NCBI RefSeq assembly: GCF_057098645.1
Contig: NZ_CM169472.1
Length of the DNA stretch: 64,000 nt
Strand: one strand, 5' to 3'
Shown here: piece by piece, positions 3,241 through 53,989 of the stretch
How positions within the stretch are numbered: the first letter of the stretch is position 1
Layout of the letters: each line of letters starts with the position of its first letter
Position numbers and translations under genes: made by a program
The notes under the pieces: generated by a model
What the model was told of the DNA's origin: nothing
Databases searched by the model: none
The model's input: only the letters and a program-made list of their open reading frames with translations

Positions 3241-3530
3241 GCCGGATGCGGCGTAAACGCCTTATCAGGCCTACGGCTCGGTTTGTAGGCCTGATAAGAC
3301 GCGCCAGCGTCGCATCAGGCTCCGGGTGCCGGATGCAGCGTGAACGCCTTATCCGGCCTACGACTCGGATTTGTAGGCCTGATAAGACGCGCCAGCGTCG
3401 CATCAGGCTCCGGGTGCCGGATGCAGCGTGAACGCCTTATCCGGCCTACGACTCGGATTTGTAGGCCTGATAAGACGCGCCAGCGTCGCATCAGGCACAG
3501 GATGCGGCGTAAAATGCCTTATCCGGCATT
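3241..3530. repeat. BIME/REP array: three tandem ~88-bp units of inverted REP palindromes in the nrdA-nrdB intergenic region
   Basis: Units start near 3241, 3327 and 3415; each has GCCGGATGC(A/G)GCGT(A/G)AACGCCTTATCCGGCCTAC followed by GTAGGCCTGATAAGACGCGCCAGCGTCGCATCAGGC. Confidence 0.85.
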
Positions 3531-23985: not shown

Positions 23986-24002
23986 TCTTAAGGTTAAGTT
24001 AA
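23986..24002 (+). promoter_or_regulatory. PmrA (BasR) box CTTAAG-GTTAA-GTTAAT upstream of arnB
   Basis: Direct-repeat half-sites matching YTTAAK-N5-YTTAAK about 80-100 bp upstream of the arnB start; arn operon is a known PmrA target. Confidence 0.7.
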
Positions 24003-24101
24003 TATTCTATCCTTAAAATTTCGATCCAAATGGCAAAATATACACAACACTCTTTATAGCAAATATAAGTGGACAGGTATTCAATGGCGGAAGGAAAAGC
24101 A

Positions 24102-25241
24102 ATGTCAGAATTTTTGCCTTTTTCGCGACCAGCAATGGGCGTGGAGGAACTCGCTGCAGTTAAAGAGGTTCTCGAATCTGGTTGGATCACAACCGGTCCG
24201 AAGAATCACGCGCTTGAACAAGCCTTTTGCCAGTTGACGGGAAATCAGCATGCCATCGCGGTCAGTTCAGCCACCGCCGGAATGCATATCACGCTAATGG
24301 CGTTGGAAATTGGCAAGGGTGATGAAGTGATTACGCCTTCCCTGACCTGGGTTTCAACCCTCAATATGATTTCCTTGTTGGGTGCAACGCCGGTAATGGT
24401 GGATGTCGACCGCGATACGCTGATGGTCACGCCTGAAGCTATCGAGTCAGCCATTACGCCACGCACTAAAGCCATCATTCCGGTGCATTATGCCGGTGCG
24501 CCAGCAGATATTGACGCCATTCGCGCCATTGGCGAACGTTACGGCATCGCAGTTATCGAAGATGCAGCCCATGCCGTCGGTACGTATTACAAAGGGCGAC
24601 ATATTGGCGCAAAAGGTACCGCTATTTTTTCGTTTCACGCCATCAAAAATATTACCTGTGCGGAAGGTGGCCTGATTGTTACTGATAATGAAAACCTTGC
24701 CCGCCAGCTACGGATGCTGAAATTTCACGGTCTGGGTGTCGATGCCTATGACAGACAAACCTGGGGCCGTGCACCGCAGGCTGAAGTCTTAACGCCGGGC
24801 TATAAGTACAATCTGACCGATATTAACGCCGCGATTGCCATGACACAGTTAGCCAAATTAGAGCACCTCAACACCCGTCGGCGCGAAATTGCCCAGCAAT
24901 ATCAGCAAGCACTGGCAGCTCTCCCCTTTCAGCCATTAAGCCTTCCCGCCTGGCCGCACGTTCACGCCTGGCATCTGTTTATTATTCGTGTCGATGAACA
25001 ACGTTGTGGTATCAGTCGCGATGCGTTGATGGAAGCGTTAAAAGAAAGAGGTATTGGTACCGGGTTACATTTCCGCGCCGCTCACACACAAAAATATTAT
25101 CGCGAGCGTTTTCCCACGCTGTCGTTACCGAATACCGAATGGAATAGCGAACGCATCTGTTCGTTGCCGCTGTTCCCGGATATGACTACCGCCGATGCCG
25201 ACCGCGTCATCACAGCCCTTCAGCAACTCGCAGGACAATAA
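24102..25241 (+). CDS. arnB: UDP-4-amino-4-deoxy-L-arabinose--oxoglutarate aminotransferase
   Basis: [44 protein letters not shown]... (DegT/ArnB PLP fold); start 24102 chosen for the GGAAGGA SD; in-frame alternatives at 24084 and 24069. Confidence 0.93.
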
Positions 25242-26212
<971 letters not shown>

Positions 26213-26213
<1 letters not shown>

Positions 26214-28195
26214 TGAAAACCGTCGTTTTTGCCTACCACGATATGGGATGCCTCGGTATTGAAGCCCTGCTGGTTGCCGGTTACGAAATTAGCGCCATTT
26301 TTACCCATACTGATAATCCCGGTGAAAAAGCCTTTTATGGTTCGGTGGCTCGTCTGGCGGCGGAAAGAGGCATTCCGGTTTATGCGCCGGATAACGTTAA
26401 TCATCCGCTGTGGGTGGAACGCATTGCCCAACTCTCACCAGAGGTGATTTTCTCTTTTTATTATCGCCATCTTATTTGCGACGAGATTTTGCAGCTCGCT
26501 CCCGCAGGTGCATTTAATCTGCACGGTTCGCTGTTACCAAAATATCGTGGTCGCGCGCCGCTGAACTGGGTGCTGGTGAACGGTGAAACGGAAACGGGCG
26601 TTACATTGCACCGAATGGTGACACGTGCCGATGCCGGGGCCATTGTGGCGCAACTGCGCGTTGCCATTGCGCCAGATGATATCGCCATTACGCTGCATCA
26701 TAAATTGTGCCATGCTGCGCGCCAGCTACTGGAACAGACATTACCCGCCATTAAACACGGTAATATTCTGGAAGTCGCCCAGCGCGAAAACGAAGCCACC
26801 TGTTTTGGTCGCAGAACGCCGGATGACAGTTTCCTCGAATGGTATAAGCCGGCATCCGTACTGCACAACATGGTACGTGCCGTTGCCGATCCGTGGCCGG
26901 GTGCCTTCAGCTATGCTGGCAATCAGAAATTCACCGTCTGGTCGTCGCGTGTTCATCCTCATGCCAGCAAAGCACAGCCGGGGAGCGTGATTTCTGTTGC
27001 GCCGTTGCTGATTGCCTGTGGCGATGGCGCGCTGGAAATCGTCACCGGACAGGCGGGCGACGGCATTACTATGCAGGGCTCGCAATTAGCGCAGACGCTG
27101 GGCCTGGTGCAAGGTTCACGCTTGAATAGCCAGCCTGCCTGTGCCGCCCGACGCCGTACCCGGGTACTCATCCTCGGGGTAAATGGCTTTATTGGCAACC
27201 ATCTGACAGAACGCCTGCTGCGCGAAGATCATTATGAAGTTTACGGTCTGGATATTGGCAGCGATGCGATAAGCCGTTTTCTGAATCATCCGCATTTTCA
27301 CTTTGTCGAAGGCGATATCAGTATTCATTCCGAATGGATTGAGTATCACGTCAAAAAATGTGATGTCGTCTTGCCGCTGGTGGCGATAGCCACGCCGATT
27401 GAATATACCCGCAACCCGCTGCGCGTATTTGAACTCGATTTTGAAGAGAATCTGCGCATTATCCGCTACTGCGTGAAGTACCGTAAGCGAATCATCTTCC
27501 CGTCAACTTCAGAAGTTTATGGGATGTGTAGCGATAAATACTTCGATGAGGACCATTCTAATTTAATCGTCGGCCCGGTGAATAAACCACGCTGGATTTA
27601 TTCGGTATCAAAACAATTACTTGATCGGGTGATCTGGGCCTATGGCGAAAAAGAGGGTTTACAGTTCACCCTCTTCCGCCCGTTTAACTGGATGGGACCA
27701 CGGCTGGATAACCTTAATGCAGCGCGAATTGGCAGCTCCCGCGCTATTACGCAACTCATTCTCAATCTGGTAGAAGGTTCACCGATTAAGCTGATTGATG
27801 GCGGAAAACAAAAACGCTGCTTTACTGATATCCGGGATGGTATCGAGGCGTTGTACCGCATTATCGAAAATGCGGGAAATCGCTGCGACGGCGAAATTAT
27901 CAACATTGGCAATCCTGAGAACGAAGCGAGCATTGAGGAACTGGGCGAGATGCTGCTGGCGAGCTTCGAAAAACATCCGCTGCGCCATCACTTCCCGCCG
28001 TTTGCAGGCTTTCGCGTTGTCGAAAGTAGCAGCTACTACGGCAAAGGATATCAGGATGTAGAGCATCGTAAACCGAGCATCAGCAATGCCCGCCGCTGCC
28101 TGGACTGGGAACCAAAAATTGATATGCAGGAAACCATCGACGAAACGCTGGATTTCTTCCTGCGCACCGTTGATCTTACGGATAAACCATCATGA
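26213..28195 (+). CDS. arnA: Bifunctional UDP-glucuronic acid decarboxylase / UDP-Ara4N formyltransferase
   Basis: 660-aa [65 protein letters not shown]...; start shares one nucleotide with the arnC stop. Confidence 0.96.
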
Positions 28196-29082
28196 CCAAA
28201 GTCGGCTTACGCATTGATGTCGATACCTTTCGTGGCACCCGTGAAGGCGTGCCGCGTCTGCTGGAAATCTTGAGTAAGCATAATATTCAGGCCAGCATTT
28301 TTTTCAGCGTCGGCCCGGACAATATGGGCCGCCATCTCTGGCGACTGGTGAAGCCACAGTTTTTGTGGAAGATGCTGCGCTCAAACGCGACATCGCTTTA
28401 TGGCTGGGATATTTTACTGGCAGGTACGGCCTGGCCAGGTAAAGAGATTGGTCATGCCAATGCCGATATCATTCGTGAAGCGGCTAAACATCACGAAGTC
28501 GGCCTGCACGCCTGGGATCACCATGCCTGGCAAGCCCATAGCGGTAACTGGGATCGGCAAACAATGATCGACGATATTGCACTCGGCCTTCGCACCCTGG
28601 AAGAGATTATCGGTCAACCGGTAACCTGTTCTGCCGCTGCGGGCTGGCGTGCCGACCAGCAGGTGATCGAAGCAAAAGAAGCGTTCCATTTGCGCTACAA
28701 CAGCGATTGTCGTGGGGCCATGCCGTTCCGTCCACTGCTCGAATCAGGAAACCCTGGCACTGCGCAAATTCCGGTGACCTTACCCACCTGGGATGAAGTG
28801 ATTGGTCGGGATGTGAAAGCAGAAGATTTTAACGGTTGGTTACTCAACCGCATCCTGCGAGATAAAGGCACGCCGGTTTATACCATTCATGCAGAAGTTG
28901 AAGGCTGCGCTTATCAGCATAATTTTGTGGATCTCCTCAAACGCGCAGCTCAGGAAGGCGTGACATTTTGCCCTTTAAGCGAACTGTTATCAGAGACGTT
29001 GCCGCTCGGACAAGTTGTTCGCGGAAATATTGCCGGACGTGAAGGCTGGCTGGGTTGCCAACAAATTGCGGGTAGTCGCTGA
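28192..29082 (+). CDS. arnD: 4-deoxy-4-formamido-L-arabinose-phosphoundecaprenol deformylase
   Basis: 296-aa [51 protein letters not shown]... (polysaccharide deacetylase fold); 4-nt overlap with arnA. Confidence 0.94.
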
Positions 29083-30734
29083 TGAAATCGGTACGTTACC
29101 TTATCGGCCTCTTCGCGTTTATTGCCTGCTATTACCTGTTACCGATCAGCACGCGTCTGCTATGGCAACCCGATGAAACGCGTTATGCGGAAATCAGTCG
29201 AGAAATGCTGGCATCCGGCGACTGGATTGTGCCCCATCTGTTAGGGCTACGTTATTTCGAAAAACCCATTGCCGGATACTGGATTAACAGCATTGGGCAA
29301 TGGCTATTTGGCGCGAATAACTTTGGTGTGCGGGCAGGCGTTATCTTTGCGACCCTGTTAACTGCCGCGCTGGTGACCTGGTTTACTCTGCGCTTATGGC
29401 GCGATAAACGTCTGGCTCTACTCGCCACAGTAATTTATCTCTCATTGTTTATTGTCTATGCCATCGGCACTTATGCCGTGCTCGATCCGTTTATTGCCTT
29501 CTGGCTGGTGGCGGGAATGTGCAGCTTCTGGCTGGCAATGCAGGCACAGTCGTGGAAAGGCAAAAGCGCAGGATTTTTACTGCTGGGAATCACCTGCGGC
29601 ATGGGGGTGATGACCAAAGGTTTTCTCGCCCTTGCCGTGCCGGTATTAAGCGTACTGCCATGGGTAGCGACGCAAAAACGCTGGAAAGATCTCTTTATTT
29701 ACGGCTGGCTGGCGGTTATCAGTTGCGTACTGACGGTTCTCCCCTGGGGACTGGCGATAGCGCAGCGGGAGCCTGACTTCTGGCACTATTTTTTCTGGGT
29801 TGAGCATATTCAACGCTTTGCACTGGATGATGCCCAACATAGAGCTCCGTTCTGGTACTACGTGCCGGTCATCATTGCCGGTAGCCTGCCGTGGCTGGGA
29901 TTACTCCCCGGTGCACTGTACGCAGGCTGGAAAAACCGCAAGCATTCCGCAACCGTCTATTTGTTGAGCTGGACGATAATGCCGCTGCTGTTTTTCTCCG
30001 TCGCTAAAGGTAAATTGCCCACCTATATTCTTTCCTGCTTTGCACCTCTGGCAATGCTGATGGCGCATTACGCTTTGCTGGCAGCAAAAAATAATCCTCT
30101 GGCGTTGCGGATTAATGGCTGGATTAACATCGCTTTTGGCGTCACTGGCATTATTGCCACATTTGTGGTCTCCCCCTGGGGACCAATGAACACGCCGGTG
30201 TGGCAAACCTTCGAGAGCTATAAAGTCTTTTGTGCCTGGTCGATTTTTTCGCTATGGGCATTTTTCGGCTGGTACACCTTAACAAACGTCGAAAAGACCT
30301 GGTCTTTTGCCGCGCTTTGCCCGCTGGGGCTGGCGTTGCTGGTAGGATTTTCAATTCCTGACAGAGTCATGGAAGGAAAACATCCGCAATTTTTTGTCGA
30401 GATGACACAAGAATCACTTCAGCCAAGCCGCTATATTCTTACTGATAGCGTCGGTGTTGCCGCAGGTCTGGCATGGAGCCTGCAACGCGATGACATCATC
30501 ATGTATCGCCAGACAGGTGAGTTGAAATACGGCCTTAATTATCCGGATGCGAAAGGGAGATTTGTCAGCGGTGATGAGTTCGCAAACTGGCTTAATCAAC
30601 ATCGTCAGGAGGGGATTATTACACTCGTGCTTTCGATTGACCGCGATGAAGATATCAACAGTCTCGCCATTCCGCCCGCAGATGCCATCGATCGTCAGGA
30701 GCGTCTGGTGCTGATTCAGTATCGTCCCAAATGA
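29082..30734 (+). CDS. arnT: Undecaprenyl phosphate-alpha-Ara4N:lipid A arabinosyltransferase
   Basis: 550-aa polytopic membrane protein [53 protein letters not shown]... Confidence 0.95.
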
Positions 30735-31066
30735 TCTGGCTAACATTAGTCTTTGCCAGCTTGCTTAGCGTTGCCGGGCAGTTGTGTCAGAAACAGGCAA
30801 CCTGCTTTGTGGCGATAAACAAACGGCGCAAACATATCGCGCTGTGGCTGGGACTGGCGCTGGCTTGTCTTGGTCTTGCCATGGTGCTCTGGCTGCTGGT
30901 CTTGCAGAACGTACCGGTAGGCATTGCCTACCCGATGTTAAGTCTGAATTTTGTCTGGGTGACGCTGGCTGCAGTAAAACTGTGGCACGAACCGGTATCG
31001 CCGCGTCACTGGTGTGGGGTGGCGTTCATTATTGGTGGCATTGTGATCCTCGGGAGTACGGTGTAA
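30731..31066 (+). CDS. arnE: Undecaprenyl phosphate-Ara4N flippase subunit ArnE (SMR-like)
   Basis: 111-aa four-[73 protein letters not shown]...; 4-nt overlap with arnT. Confidence 0.9.
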
Positions 31067-31452
31067 TGGGCCTGATGTGGGGATTATTCAGCGTCATTAT
31101 TGCCTCAGTTGCGCAATTAAGCCTGGGTTTTGCGGCGAGTCATCTGCCGCCGATGACGCACTTATGGGATTTTATCGCGGCTCTGTTAGCTTTTGGGCTG
31201 GATGCCCGGATACTGTTACTCGGGCTGCTGGGTTATCTGCTTTCCGTTTTTTGTTGGTATAAAACACTACATAAACTTGCGCTAAGCAAAGCCTATGCCT
31301 TGCTCAGTATGAGTTATGTGCTGGTATGGATTGCTTCAATGGTACTTCCCGGCTGGGAAGGGACTTTTTCGCTGAAAGCACTACTGGGAGTAGCCTGTAT
31401 TATGAGCGGGTTGATGCTGATTTTCCTGCCCACGACAAAACAACGTTACTGA
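31066..31452 (+). CDS. arnF: Undecaprenyl phosphate-Ara4N flippase subunit ArnF (SMR-like)
   Basis: ATG at 31066 shares one nucleotide with the arnE stop (TAATG); [36 protein letters not shown]..., 128 aa; the ORF-track call from 30784 overlaps arnE out of frame. Confidence 0.88.
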
Positions 31453-31712
31453 GTTTTCCCTGCCGCTGTACACTGCCGTTCCCACTCATCGGGGCTATAA
31501 CAGCTTGCAGAGAGGACTTTCACCGTATGCAGCTTTTCACGATTAATACAATAAAGCGCATTCTGCAAAGGCGAGAGTAAATCCCCCACTTTCACGGCGA
31601 AGTCACTCTTCACTTCGGCGATCATTTTTATCGCGCCGCCAGCATCGCAGAGCATAAGTACATGTCTGTTATCTTGTTTATTGCAGCACGATTTTTTGAC
31701 CAGCCATTCCAT
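31446..31712 (-). CDS. pmrD: PhoPQ-PmrAB connector protein PmrD
   Basis: Start at [70 protein letters not shown]..., 88 aa; 3' end overlaps the arnF 3' end by 7 nt. Confidence 0.9.
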
Positions 31713-31821
31713 TGCATTATCCTGTTTGATAAGAGTTTTCACATCAATTTACAGATTAACAGATAAACCTATTATCAACGGCAATGGAATGGCAGAAATG
31801 AGAAGTGAAACGGAGGGTTAA

Positions 31822-33177
31822 TTATTGCTGACGTTGCACCCACTCTTTTAGCACCTGACGTGAAATTTTAATACCGCCGTTTTTCAGTTCAGGCGGCAAC
31901 GTTAACCAACGCACCGGTTGCTGAAAACGGGCCAGCTTATCTTTCACCCATTCACTAAGATCAACGCTCTCGTGGTCATACTCCATCACCGCCACCGCTC
32001 GATGACCAAACTCCTTGTCGGCAACGGGGACGATAAACACCTGCAAAACCGCAGGATGTGCAGCAATTACGCGCTCGACTTCTTCCGGCTGAATACCCTC
32101 TCCGCCACTGAAGAATAGATTGTCTAAACGTCCGACAATGGTCAGCTTGCCATTATGCATCTCACCGCGATCGCGCGTAGCGTACCAGCCTTCGTCATTA
32201 ACCAGTGAAACCAGTTGCCCGTTACGCCAGTAACCTTCTGCCATACTGGCAGCCCGCAGCCACACTTCATTATTAACGATTTTCACTTCCCGACCCGGCA
32301 GCGGCGAACCAACGTCTGCCAGGCCGTCGGCTTCTTTCGCACACACCGTGGAGGCAAACTCGGTCAGACCATAGCCGCAAAAGCAACGAATCCCCTGCTC
32401 GCGTGCCTGTTCCGTCAACTCGACCGGGATAGCCGCGCCGCCAAGTAACACCGCTTTCAGGGAAACGGAACTGCGGTTAACCAGCAAACGCCAGAGTTGT
32501 GTTGGCACCAGTGAAGCGTGAGTACAGCCTGCCAGCATTTGCTCCAATGGCTGTTTATCACGCACCGTCATCCGCGCACCAGCGTATAACCAGCGCCACA
32601 TAATTCCCTGACCGGAGACGTGAAACAGCGGTAAAGAGAGCAACCAGTCATCGTGATCGCCAAACGGAATCAACGATAACACCCCTTCGGCACTGGCAAG
32701 ATGGGCCTGATAAGTATGGACAGCGGCTTTCGGCAACCCGGTAGAACCCGAGGTCAACGTCATTGAGCACAGACGCGTCGGCTGCCACGTAGCGACATGT
32801 GCGCCTTCAACCCGCTGAATGTGCAGCGACGTTAATGCCGGAAACGTGTTTTCCCCATCCGGCACCAGCGCAAATTGCAGCGTCAGATTGGGCAGCAATT
32901 CTTCAAGCAACGGTTGCGGCAGCTGAGGGTTCACGGGCAACACCCGCGCCCCGCATTGCAGTAACGCCAGCCAGGCGAGCAGCGTTTGCGGCGTATTCCA
33001 CGCCCGCAACATCACGCCGCTGCCCTCAACCACACCCTGCACCGCAAAACCGGAGGCTAATTCATCGACGCGAGCACAAAGCTCGCGCCAGTTGAGTTGC
33101 TCGTCATTAAGACGTAAGGCGATGGTTTCTCCCCGCATTTGCCGCCAGTGACGCCACGGCCAGTCAGAGAAGATCAT
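31822..33177 (-). CDS. menE: o-Succinylbenzoate--CoA ligase
   Basis: 451-aa adenylate-forming enzyme [44 protein letters not shown]...; last gene of the men cluster. Confidence 0.94.
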
Positions 33178-53937: not shown

Positions 53938-53989
53938 TAGCATGCTTCCAGTTTTCTCAGTCAGAGACTGAGCGTTAATCGAAATTCGG

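Follow-up and report, generated by a model that had tools for sequence, protein, structure and literature searches.

Two genes in the window, arnF and pmrD, converge tail-to-tail and share 7 nt of coding sequence on opposite strands. We regard it as probable, though by no means certain, that their junction is an ordinary spacer-free meeting of two convergent units, with no dedicated regulatory device, at which each transcript would end inside the opposite gene. The window, a stretch of 64,000 nt, is part of the Escherichia coli chromosome; the 1.2 kb queried from it was 100% identical to O145:H28 strains. The sense/antisense overlap of the two mRNAs is real, as RNA-seq surveys report, and its regulatory effect is probably small. 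If there is any effect, the expected direction is that PmrA-driven read-through from the arn operon would lower pmrD expression. The genes concerned are as follows.

24102-31452, plus strand: the arnB-arnC-arnA-arnD-arnT-arnE-arnF operon (RefSeq), read-through from which would be antisense to pmrD.
31066-31452, plus strand: arnF, 128 aa, undecaprenyl-phosphate-Ara4N flippase subunit, the last gene of arnBCADTEF (RefSeq, NCBIfam).
31446-31712, minus strand: pmrD, 88 aa, signal transduction/connector protein (RefSeq, NCBIfam).
31446-31452, both strands: TTACTGA, the coding segment shared by arnF and pmrD (sequence, ORFs, RefSeq annotation).
31822-33177, minus strand: menE, which closes the men operon and lies upstream of pmrD in the same orientation.

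The plus strand at 31440-31460 was read directly from the window as acaacgTTAcTGAgttttccc. The arnF stop codon, TGA at 31450-31452, is the first in its frame, and the pmrD stop appears as TTA at 31446-31448 on the plus strand, which is TAA on the minus strand (31448-31446). On the arnF side, the shared segment consists of the third base of the Arg127 codon, the Tyr128 codon, and the stop TGA; on the pmrD side, it consists of the stop TAA, the codon for Gln88, and a single base from that for Thr87. The genes are adjacent, lie on opposite strands with their 3′ ends facing, and have at least 1 nt of coding sequence in common, which makes them a convergent overlapping gene pair. Sequence, ORFs, and RefSeq annotation agreed on the 7-nt overlap, confirming that it is real. 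The first-pass annotation had located both stop codons correctly and had given the length of the overlap as 7 nt; the stop triplets themselves have no base in common and lie 1 base apart.

The same annotation had reasoned that the 3′ UTRs of the two genes must be antisense to each other, which the geometry contradicts. The UTRs diverge: from 31453, that of arnF extends rightward, antisense to the coding sequence of pmrD, and from 31445, that of pmrD extends leftward, antisense to the coding sequence of arnF. From geometry alone, complementarity of at least 7 nt between the full-length arnF and pmrD mRNAs is unavoidable. Because full-length mRNAs share these 7 nt, termination of both transcripts before the overlap, which had been proposed as the observation that would disprove an interaction, is impossible for functional mRNAs.

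The assignments of the two genes as arnF and pmrD hold, since both proteins scored above the NCBIfam cutoffs. ArnF belongs to the equivalog family NF002816 (140 bits, cutoff 99), the model spanning residues 4-122, and PmrD belongs to NF011994 (175.8 bits, cutoff 96), with residues 1-85 of 88 covered and the last three residues, KTQ, lying beyond the model. PF11183 was recorded on PmrD homologues, and the 88-aa PmrD was nearly identical from end to end to the chain in PDB entries 2jso and 4hn7, an E. coli protein with solved structures. Because NF002816 coverage ends at residue 122, the overlapped codons of ArnF (127-128) fall in a tail outside the model, and those of PmrD (87-88) are likewise outside theirs. 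An alternative upstream start, GTG, would extend PmrD to 98 aa and leaves the 3′ end unaffected.

Within E. coli, the overlap is widespread. The K-12 MG1655 RefSeq annotation contains the identical 7-nt overlap (arnF 2372892-2373278, pmrD 2373272-2373538), and an overlap of 7 nt is also annotated in a divergent strain in which the junction is only 90% identical. Of 5426 complete E. coli genomes, 5236 contained the 60-nt junction, and arnF and pmrD were both annotated across it. As a class, the arnF/pmrD overlap is ordinary, convergent coding overlaps being common in E. coli: in a published census (PMC4161906), 75 of the 663 adjacent pairs that overlap were convergent. Among the seven convergent pairs in the window, arnF/pmrD was the sole overlap, the other six being separated by gaps of 38-66 nt.

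A PmrD homologue profile led to 18 genomic loci, for which stop-to-stop distances were calculated by script; S. enterica proper was added separately. Thirteen loci with intact arnF (Escherichia, Salmonella, and Citrobacter) formed the comparison set, with an S. arizonae assembly as a 14th. The distances obtained are given below, positive values denoting overlap.

+7 nt: an E. coli-like contig and E. albertii.
+6 nt: S. enterica subsp. diarizonae and S. enterica proper.
0 nt: Citrobacter, one locus.
-2 nt: Citrobacter, six loci.
-3 nt: Citrobacter, three loci.
-9 nt: Citrobacter, one locus.
-23 nt: the S. arizonae assembly, in which arnE/arnF are apparently degraded.

Intact arnF/pmrD pairs in the three genera thus ranged from +7 to -9 nt, with no spacer. 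Because the distances vary over this range, the conserved trait is the missing intergenic spacer and not the overlap itself. Neither the exact overlap nor the junction sequence is conserved between genera in these alignments: identity to the window was 0.18-0.53 at 31421-31465 versus about 0.6-0.8 in the flanks, which makes this the least conserved stretch between arnE and menE across genera. The ArnF tails varied freely between genera, and the ArnF orthologues in 16 genomes stopped within a few codons of one another's place. The retention of a spacer-free junction in three genera could also reflect selection for coupling and not simply a lack of insertions, an observation that counts against the reading we prefer.

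The pmrD context is reported to be common to Citrobacter, Salmonella, and Escherichia and different in Klebsiella, and the gene was probably acquired horizontally (PMC3140997). In our set, pmrD-like genes were found upstream of or adjoining amn in Klebsiella aerogenes, in a K. variicola-type genome (K. pneumoniae complex), and in Raoultella, and a Pseudocitrobacter gene of the PmrD family occupied yet another locus, at neither the arnF nor the amn site. Two Escherichia genomes and Intestinirhabdus alba have lost the arn operon by deletion and nevertheless kept pmrD, both of these Escherichia genomes retaining a 3′ remnant of arnF. Since pmrD survives the deletion of arn, it is independent of arn in cis.

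Termination signals were sought around the junction and along the paths that each transcript would follow beyond its own stop codon.

31453-31712, plus strand: the arn read-through path, fully antisense to pmrD mRNA, with a C/G ratio of 1.15-1.78 in 78-nt windows.
31066-31445, minus strand: the pmrD 3′ UTR path, antisense to the arnF coding sequence, with a C/G ratio of 0.94-1.79 in 78-nt windows.
31274-31315, minus strand: the most stable hairpin on the pmrD 3′ path, -16.5 kcal/mol.

Three scans of the window detected no intrinsic terminator, defined as a G+C-rich hairpin followed by a U-tract, up to 450 nt from the two stops, and none was found over the same distance in seven of nine orthologous loci. 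The nine loci together yielded three isolated terminator hits only, which corresponds to chance level. The strict scan recovered 3 of 12 control convergent gene ends, with 0.95 background hits per kb on each strand; because it was this insensitive, the absence of an intrinsic terminator is weak evidence, and a comparison of hairpin strength was preferred. The best hairpin within 60 nt on either side of the junction reached -9.1 kcal/mol on the plus strand and -11.2 kcal/mol on the minus strand, weaker than the median best hairpin of random 121-nt windows (-12.95 kcal/mol). In the window, a G+C-rich palindrome (-15.7 to -23.6 kcal/mol) was present in all six remaining convergent gaps. An inverted-repeat search revealed no notable repeat at the arnF/pmrD junction, and by this search and by hairpin strength the junction lacks the stem-loop of a bidirectional terminator. 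Rfam-type RNA families were also absent from 30700-32100, the only match being a chance hit to a vertebrate lncRNA model (E = 0.45). Neither the sequence itself nor the comparisons gave any sign of a dedicated regulatory element where arnF and pmrD meet. With no terminator-like hairpin to halt either transcript nearby, the two could overlap over a long stretch.

Both read-through paths were C-rich relative to G, with C/G mostly 1.1-1.8, in the 63rd-96th percentile in most windows. Because any strand antisense to a coding region typically has a C/G ratio above 1, these values are to be read only as compatible with Rho loading on either path after translation stops. Between the menE stop and pmrD no hairpin was found (best -6.2 kcal/mol), so men read-through could pass through pmrD into the region antisense to arnF, and the minus-strand unit that ends inside arnF may include it.

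The hairpin at 31274-31315 was considered as a pmrD terminator inside arnF and was rejected. It is strand-asymmetric, its G.U pairs on the minus strand being A.C mismatches on the plus strand, and the U-rich stretch 3′ of it occurs in Escherichia only. Across 17 orthologues, pairing was kept in 93.6% of alignment cells, compared with 92.3% in column shuffles; 48 of 500 shuffles reached the observed value, and one pair alone changed on both sides. The pairing is found because the conserved ArnF peptide LSKAYALLS imposes it.

The small gene pmrD has a patchy distribution and is regarded in the literature as horizontally acquired; in the Escherichia/Salmonella/Citrobacter lineage it lies between arnF and menE with no intergenic DNA. 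According to the reading that we prefer, it was packed against the distal end of arn. The stop codons, situated in poorly conserved C-terminal tails, would drift by a few bases and so produce a short overlap. Neither unit would own a terminator at the junction, and each transcript would run into the opposite gene; indeed, with no spacer and no hairpin, each must enter it. We infer from the sequence where the arn and pmrD transcripts end, and their ends are probably set by Rho-dependent termination, polymerase collision, or 3′ decay.

The arnF/pmrD overlap is already annotated in RefSeq and catalogued by ExcludonFinder, which lists arnF-pmrD among 165 convergent excludons of MG1655 (PMC12288877, NAR 2025), the criterion being that RNA-seq coverage overlaps in 50% or more of 58 MG1655 data sets. 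Its authors named the pair as functionally related partners in the same pathway and reported that synteny is higher for excludon pairs in general than for other neighbours (PMC12288877). The membership of both genes in one regulatory circuit, the singling out of this pair, and the higher synteny of the class are points against the reading we prefer. In our literature search, we found no paper that tested a reciprocal effect of arnF and pmrD on expression. The available part of the Adams 2021 Term-seq supplement text contained no entry for pmrD or arnF, and the SMRT-Cappable-seq supplements contained no arnF/pmrD entry. The additions made here are the spacer-free layout kept in three genera, the location of pmrD at another locus in Klebsiella and Raoultella, the lack of a junction hairpin, and the non-conserved tails.

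The statement of the first-pass annotation that PmrD is a connector that raises arn expression is well founded for Salmonella, and the connection is weak in K-12. In Salmonella, the PhoP-induced connector PmrD protects phospho-PmrA and thereby increases arn (pbgP) transcription (PMC2565834; PMC3140997), and at low Mg2+ the induction of pmrD leads to the induction of arn (PMC2565834). The connection in E. coli K-12 is weak because PmrB is a stronger phosphatase there (PMC2565834; PMC3140997). PmrA also represses pmrD transcription in Salmonella, which is explained by promoter binding (PMC2565834; PMC3140997); by the published view, this PmrA-pmrD feedback loop is absent from E. coli (PMC3140997). 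Known regulation, with co-induction predicted at low Mg2+ as in Salmonella, would argue against strict mutual exclusivity of the two units. Two sites in the window bear on this circuit.

23987-24003, plus strand: PmrA-box-like site CTTAAGGTTAAGTTAAT, which lies about 100 nt upstream of arnB and differs from YTTAAK-N5-YTTAAK by 1 mismatch.
31764-31780, minus strand: PhoP-box-like site CGTTGATAATAGGTTTA, with 2 mismatches, preceding the pmrD ATG by 52-68 nt.

From its position and the literature, the first is the putative PmrA site of arn. The second is a candidate pmrD promoter element, and the published PhoP-dependent expression of pmrD in E. coli (PMC3140997) fits it. No PmrA box with up to 2 mismatches was present in the pmrD promoter region (31713-31821).

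These sites are relevant to an alternative explanation in which the junction would provide negative feedback in cis. Read-through from arn, driven by PmrA-P, would cross pmrD and its PhoP-dependent promoter and would lower pmrD expression; polymerase collision, occlusion of the promoter, and cutting of the RNA duplex by RNase III could act alone or together. Such feedback would add to the promoter-level PmrA repression known in Salmonella or, in E. coli, replace it. We consider this explanation unlikely, although several observations are in its favour. The pmrD gene and its promoter all lie within about 330 nt of the arnF stop, and because no terminator-like hairpin occurs at or after this stop, arn read-through would be structurally unimpeded. 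The pair appears in an RNA-seq list of overlapping convergent transcripts (PMC12288877), the spacer-free layout is kept in three genera, and the sign of the effect matches PmrA-dependent pmrD repression in Salmonella (PMC2565834; PMC3140997). A PmrA box is found at arnB and not at the E. coli pmrD promoter (up to 2 mismatches allowed), and it is in E. coli that such feedback would be easiest to see. Klebsiella, which has neither PmrA repression of pmrD nor the convergent layout, fits as well, though a missing PmrA box would explain this equally.

Against such feedback, the junction sequence is not conserved, and nothing in the sequence comparisons argues for selection. Antisense RNA that runs on past a stop codon is typically a target of Rho, and the path here is C-rich relative to G, so the read-through may be rare and of limited length. 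Within the 7.4-kb arn operon, arnF occupies the distal end and is probably the least abundant part of the transcript. The Salmonella loop, moreover, is already explained by promoter binding (PMC2565834; PMC3140997). Finally, the available part of the RNase III/p19 dsRNA tables, obtained from cells in non-inducing growth, showed no pmrD or arnF duplex among the entries listed; the nearby entries listed there were duplexes of menE and arnD only. A stronger form of the idea, in which the tail-to-tail placement of pmrD in the Escherichia/Salmonella/Citrobacter lineage would act as a built-in cis-antisense brake independent of PmrA binding at the pmrD promoter and would be the only feedback in E. 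coli, appears to us slightly more doubtful again.

Klebsiella was also considered as a natural test of coupling and was set aside, as pmrD there adjoins amn and not arnF. A qPCR study in Klebsiella found no effect of PmrA on pmrD mRNA (PMC2565834); because the convergent layout is missing, an unrepressed pmrD neither supports nor refutes antisense coupling.

A further explanation, which we judge to be improbable, is that the overlapped ends constitute a bidirectional terminator, the two units terminating each other by collision, so that the layout would serve termination and not regulation. Many convergent E. coli pairs reportedly have overlapping ends and terminate in a manner neither Rho-dependent nor intrinsic-like, and the arnF and pmrD units are convergent with no other recognisable terminator. 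However, the published model needs a stem-loop at which the polymerases pause, and none above background exists here. Both units must also be well expressed together, which leaves the ends undefined in states in which only one unit is active, for example when Fe3+ induces arn without PhoP activation. The last explanation, that the overlap is an annotation artefact because one of the stops is not the true protein end, was effectively refuted: both stops are the first in frame, curated equivalog models cover almost the whole of each ORF, PmrD matches the protein of solved structure from end to end, and the ArnF orthologues end at nearly the same place.

The arnF/pmrD junction also has practical consequences. 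Any deletion, tag, or insertion placed at the 3′ end of arnF or pmrD also changes the last codons and the stop of the partner, and polar insertions in the arn operon abolish any read-through into pmrD; both points call for caution. If damping of pmrD by arn read-through were true, it would form a cis-acting layer in the PhoPQ-PmrD-PmrAB circuit, a much-studied model for the connection of two-component systems and for the setting of polymyxin resistance.

Compared with other convergent overlapping pairs in bacteria, arnF/pmrD shows no essential difference. Such pairs likewise share few 3′ bases, each stop codon being placed beyond the other. The arnF/pmrD overlap is short, is confined to non-conserved tails, and varies among relatives, which fits the stop-codon drift proposed for the class (PMC4161906). 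The one distinguishing point is that arnF and pmrD share one regulatory circuit. Feedback by arn read-through would follow the same logic as PmrA repression of pmrD in Salmonella, in which the active PmrA/arn branch lowers its own activator; the Salmonella loop operates through PmrA at the pmrD promoter, whereas the antisense route for arnF/pmrD is hypothetical. Collision-assisted terminators (Ju et al. 2019; Wang et al. 2022 preprint) are likewise convergent, with overlapping 3′ ends and without canonical terminators, and in them polymerases converging head-on set both 3′ ends. These terminators have a short intergenic region with a stem-loop that pauses both polymerases, however, and arnF/pmrD has neither. 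Excludons, of which Listeria provides the paradigm, are likewise neighbours on opposite strands with overlapping transcripts, and the pair is named in the MG1655 excludome (PMC12288877). In contrast to classical excludons, in which expression is mutually exclusive and functions are often opposing, the functions of arnF and pmrD cooperate. Because they cooperate, and because pmrD induction leads to arn induction in Salmonella, any effect of the overlap would be a damping feedback and not a switch; if it proved true, the excludon catalogue would gain a case of feedback within one pathway in place of a switch between opposing functions.

The final 23 nt of menE (window 31822-31844; K-12 v2 2371672-2371694) coincide exactly with the position of a published RNase III duplex captured by p19 in MG1655, and a second published p19-captured duplex from the same strain lies approximately 78 nt deeper into the gene. 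Because these duplexes map there, MG1655 contains an antisense RNA that covers the 3' end of menE. One promoter-like sequence was found in the pmrD-menE intergenic region:

31748-31775, + strand: sigma-70-like site, TTTACA-16-TATTAT, 10/12 match

This site is oriented into menE in the antisense direction; both it and read-through from the arn operon past the arnF stop are candidates for the source of the antisense RNA. On the opposite strand, no terminator-like hairpin was detected in the gap between the menE stop and pmrD (31713-31821, - strand), where the best structure reached -6.2 kcal/mol, and pmrD may also be transcribed by PhoP-independent read-through from the men operon.

Within the arn operon, arnT and arnE overlap by 4 nt (30731-30734) and arnE and arnF by 1 nt (TAATG, at 31066), in both cases on the same strand. 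Short same-strand overlaps of this kind are typical and are associated with translational coupling. Two further features were found within arnF or across its 3' end:

31261-31299, - strand: three PhoP-half-site-like matches with 11-nt spacing, inside arnF and overlapping the hairpin region at 31274-31315
31326-31580, + strand: 84-aa ATG open reading frame, in another frame, across the arnF/pmrD junction

The half-site-like matches are probably chance occurrences in an A+T-rich stretch, and the open reading frame is probably spurious.

The junction itself varies among genomes. Rare frameshifted E. coli pmrD alleles (P0006, P0007, P0020, P0034, and P0015) encode products of 103-110 aa, the changed C-termini of which extend beyond the usual stop, so that the coding sequence shared with arnF grows to roughly 50-70 nt. 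At three loci, L003 (Escherichia sp. MOD1-EC7003), L004 (E. coli SCPM-O-B-8794), and L017 (Intestinirhabdus alba), the arn operon has been mostly lost while pmrD is kept, and ais now lies a few hundred bp from pmrD. The two Escherichia loci, L003 and L004, retain a 3' remnant of arnF of 22-90 codons, and pmrD of L004 encodes 90 aa and ends at another stop. In Salmonella enterica subsp. arizonae CCUG 6322T (L010), arnE carries an in-frame stop and the arnF match is limited to residues 1-84; this could mean either that the two flippase genes are pseudogenes in this assembly or that the assembly itself is in error.

Elsewhere in the window, Rfam searches returned the following RNA elements:

3288-3358 and 3376-3446, - strand: two tandem naRNA4 matches, 76.4 bits each, in the nrdA-nrdB intergenic region
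53945-53987, - strand: nuoG RNA motif, 50.3 bits against a gathering score of 33

The naRNA4 matches are REP/BIME-type elements. According to the annotation, the nuoG motif occupies the intergenic gap between nuoF and nuoG, immediately 5' of the latter.

PmrD-family genes also occur in other settings. In Klebsiella aerogenes, the K. pneumoniae complex, and Raoultella, which together with Pseudocitrobacter are represented by loci L024-L028, amn (AMP nucleosidase) lies downstream of and co-directional with the PmrD-family gene, and the Pseudocitrobacter gene occupies a third locus. Many of these 79-85 aa proteins are labeled "histidine kinase" by NCBI, which looks like a misnomer. Nine separate stretches of P0108, a 579-aa protein from the representative library, match the PmrD profile, suggesting that it is made of tandem PmrD-like domains, and distant single-domain relatives are found in Rahnella and one Acinetobacter MAG.
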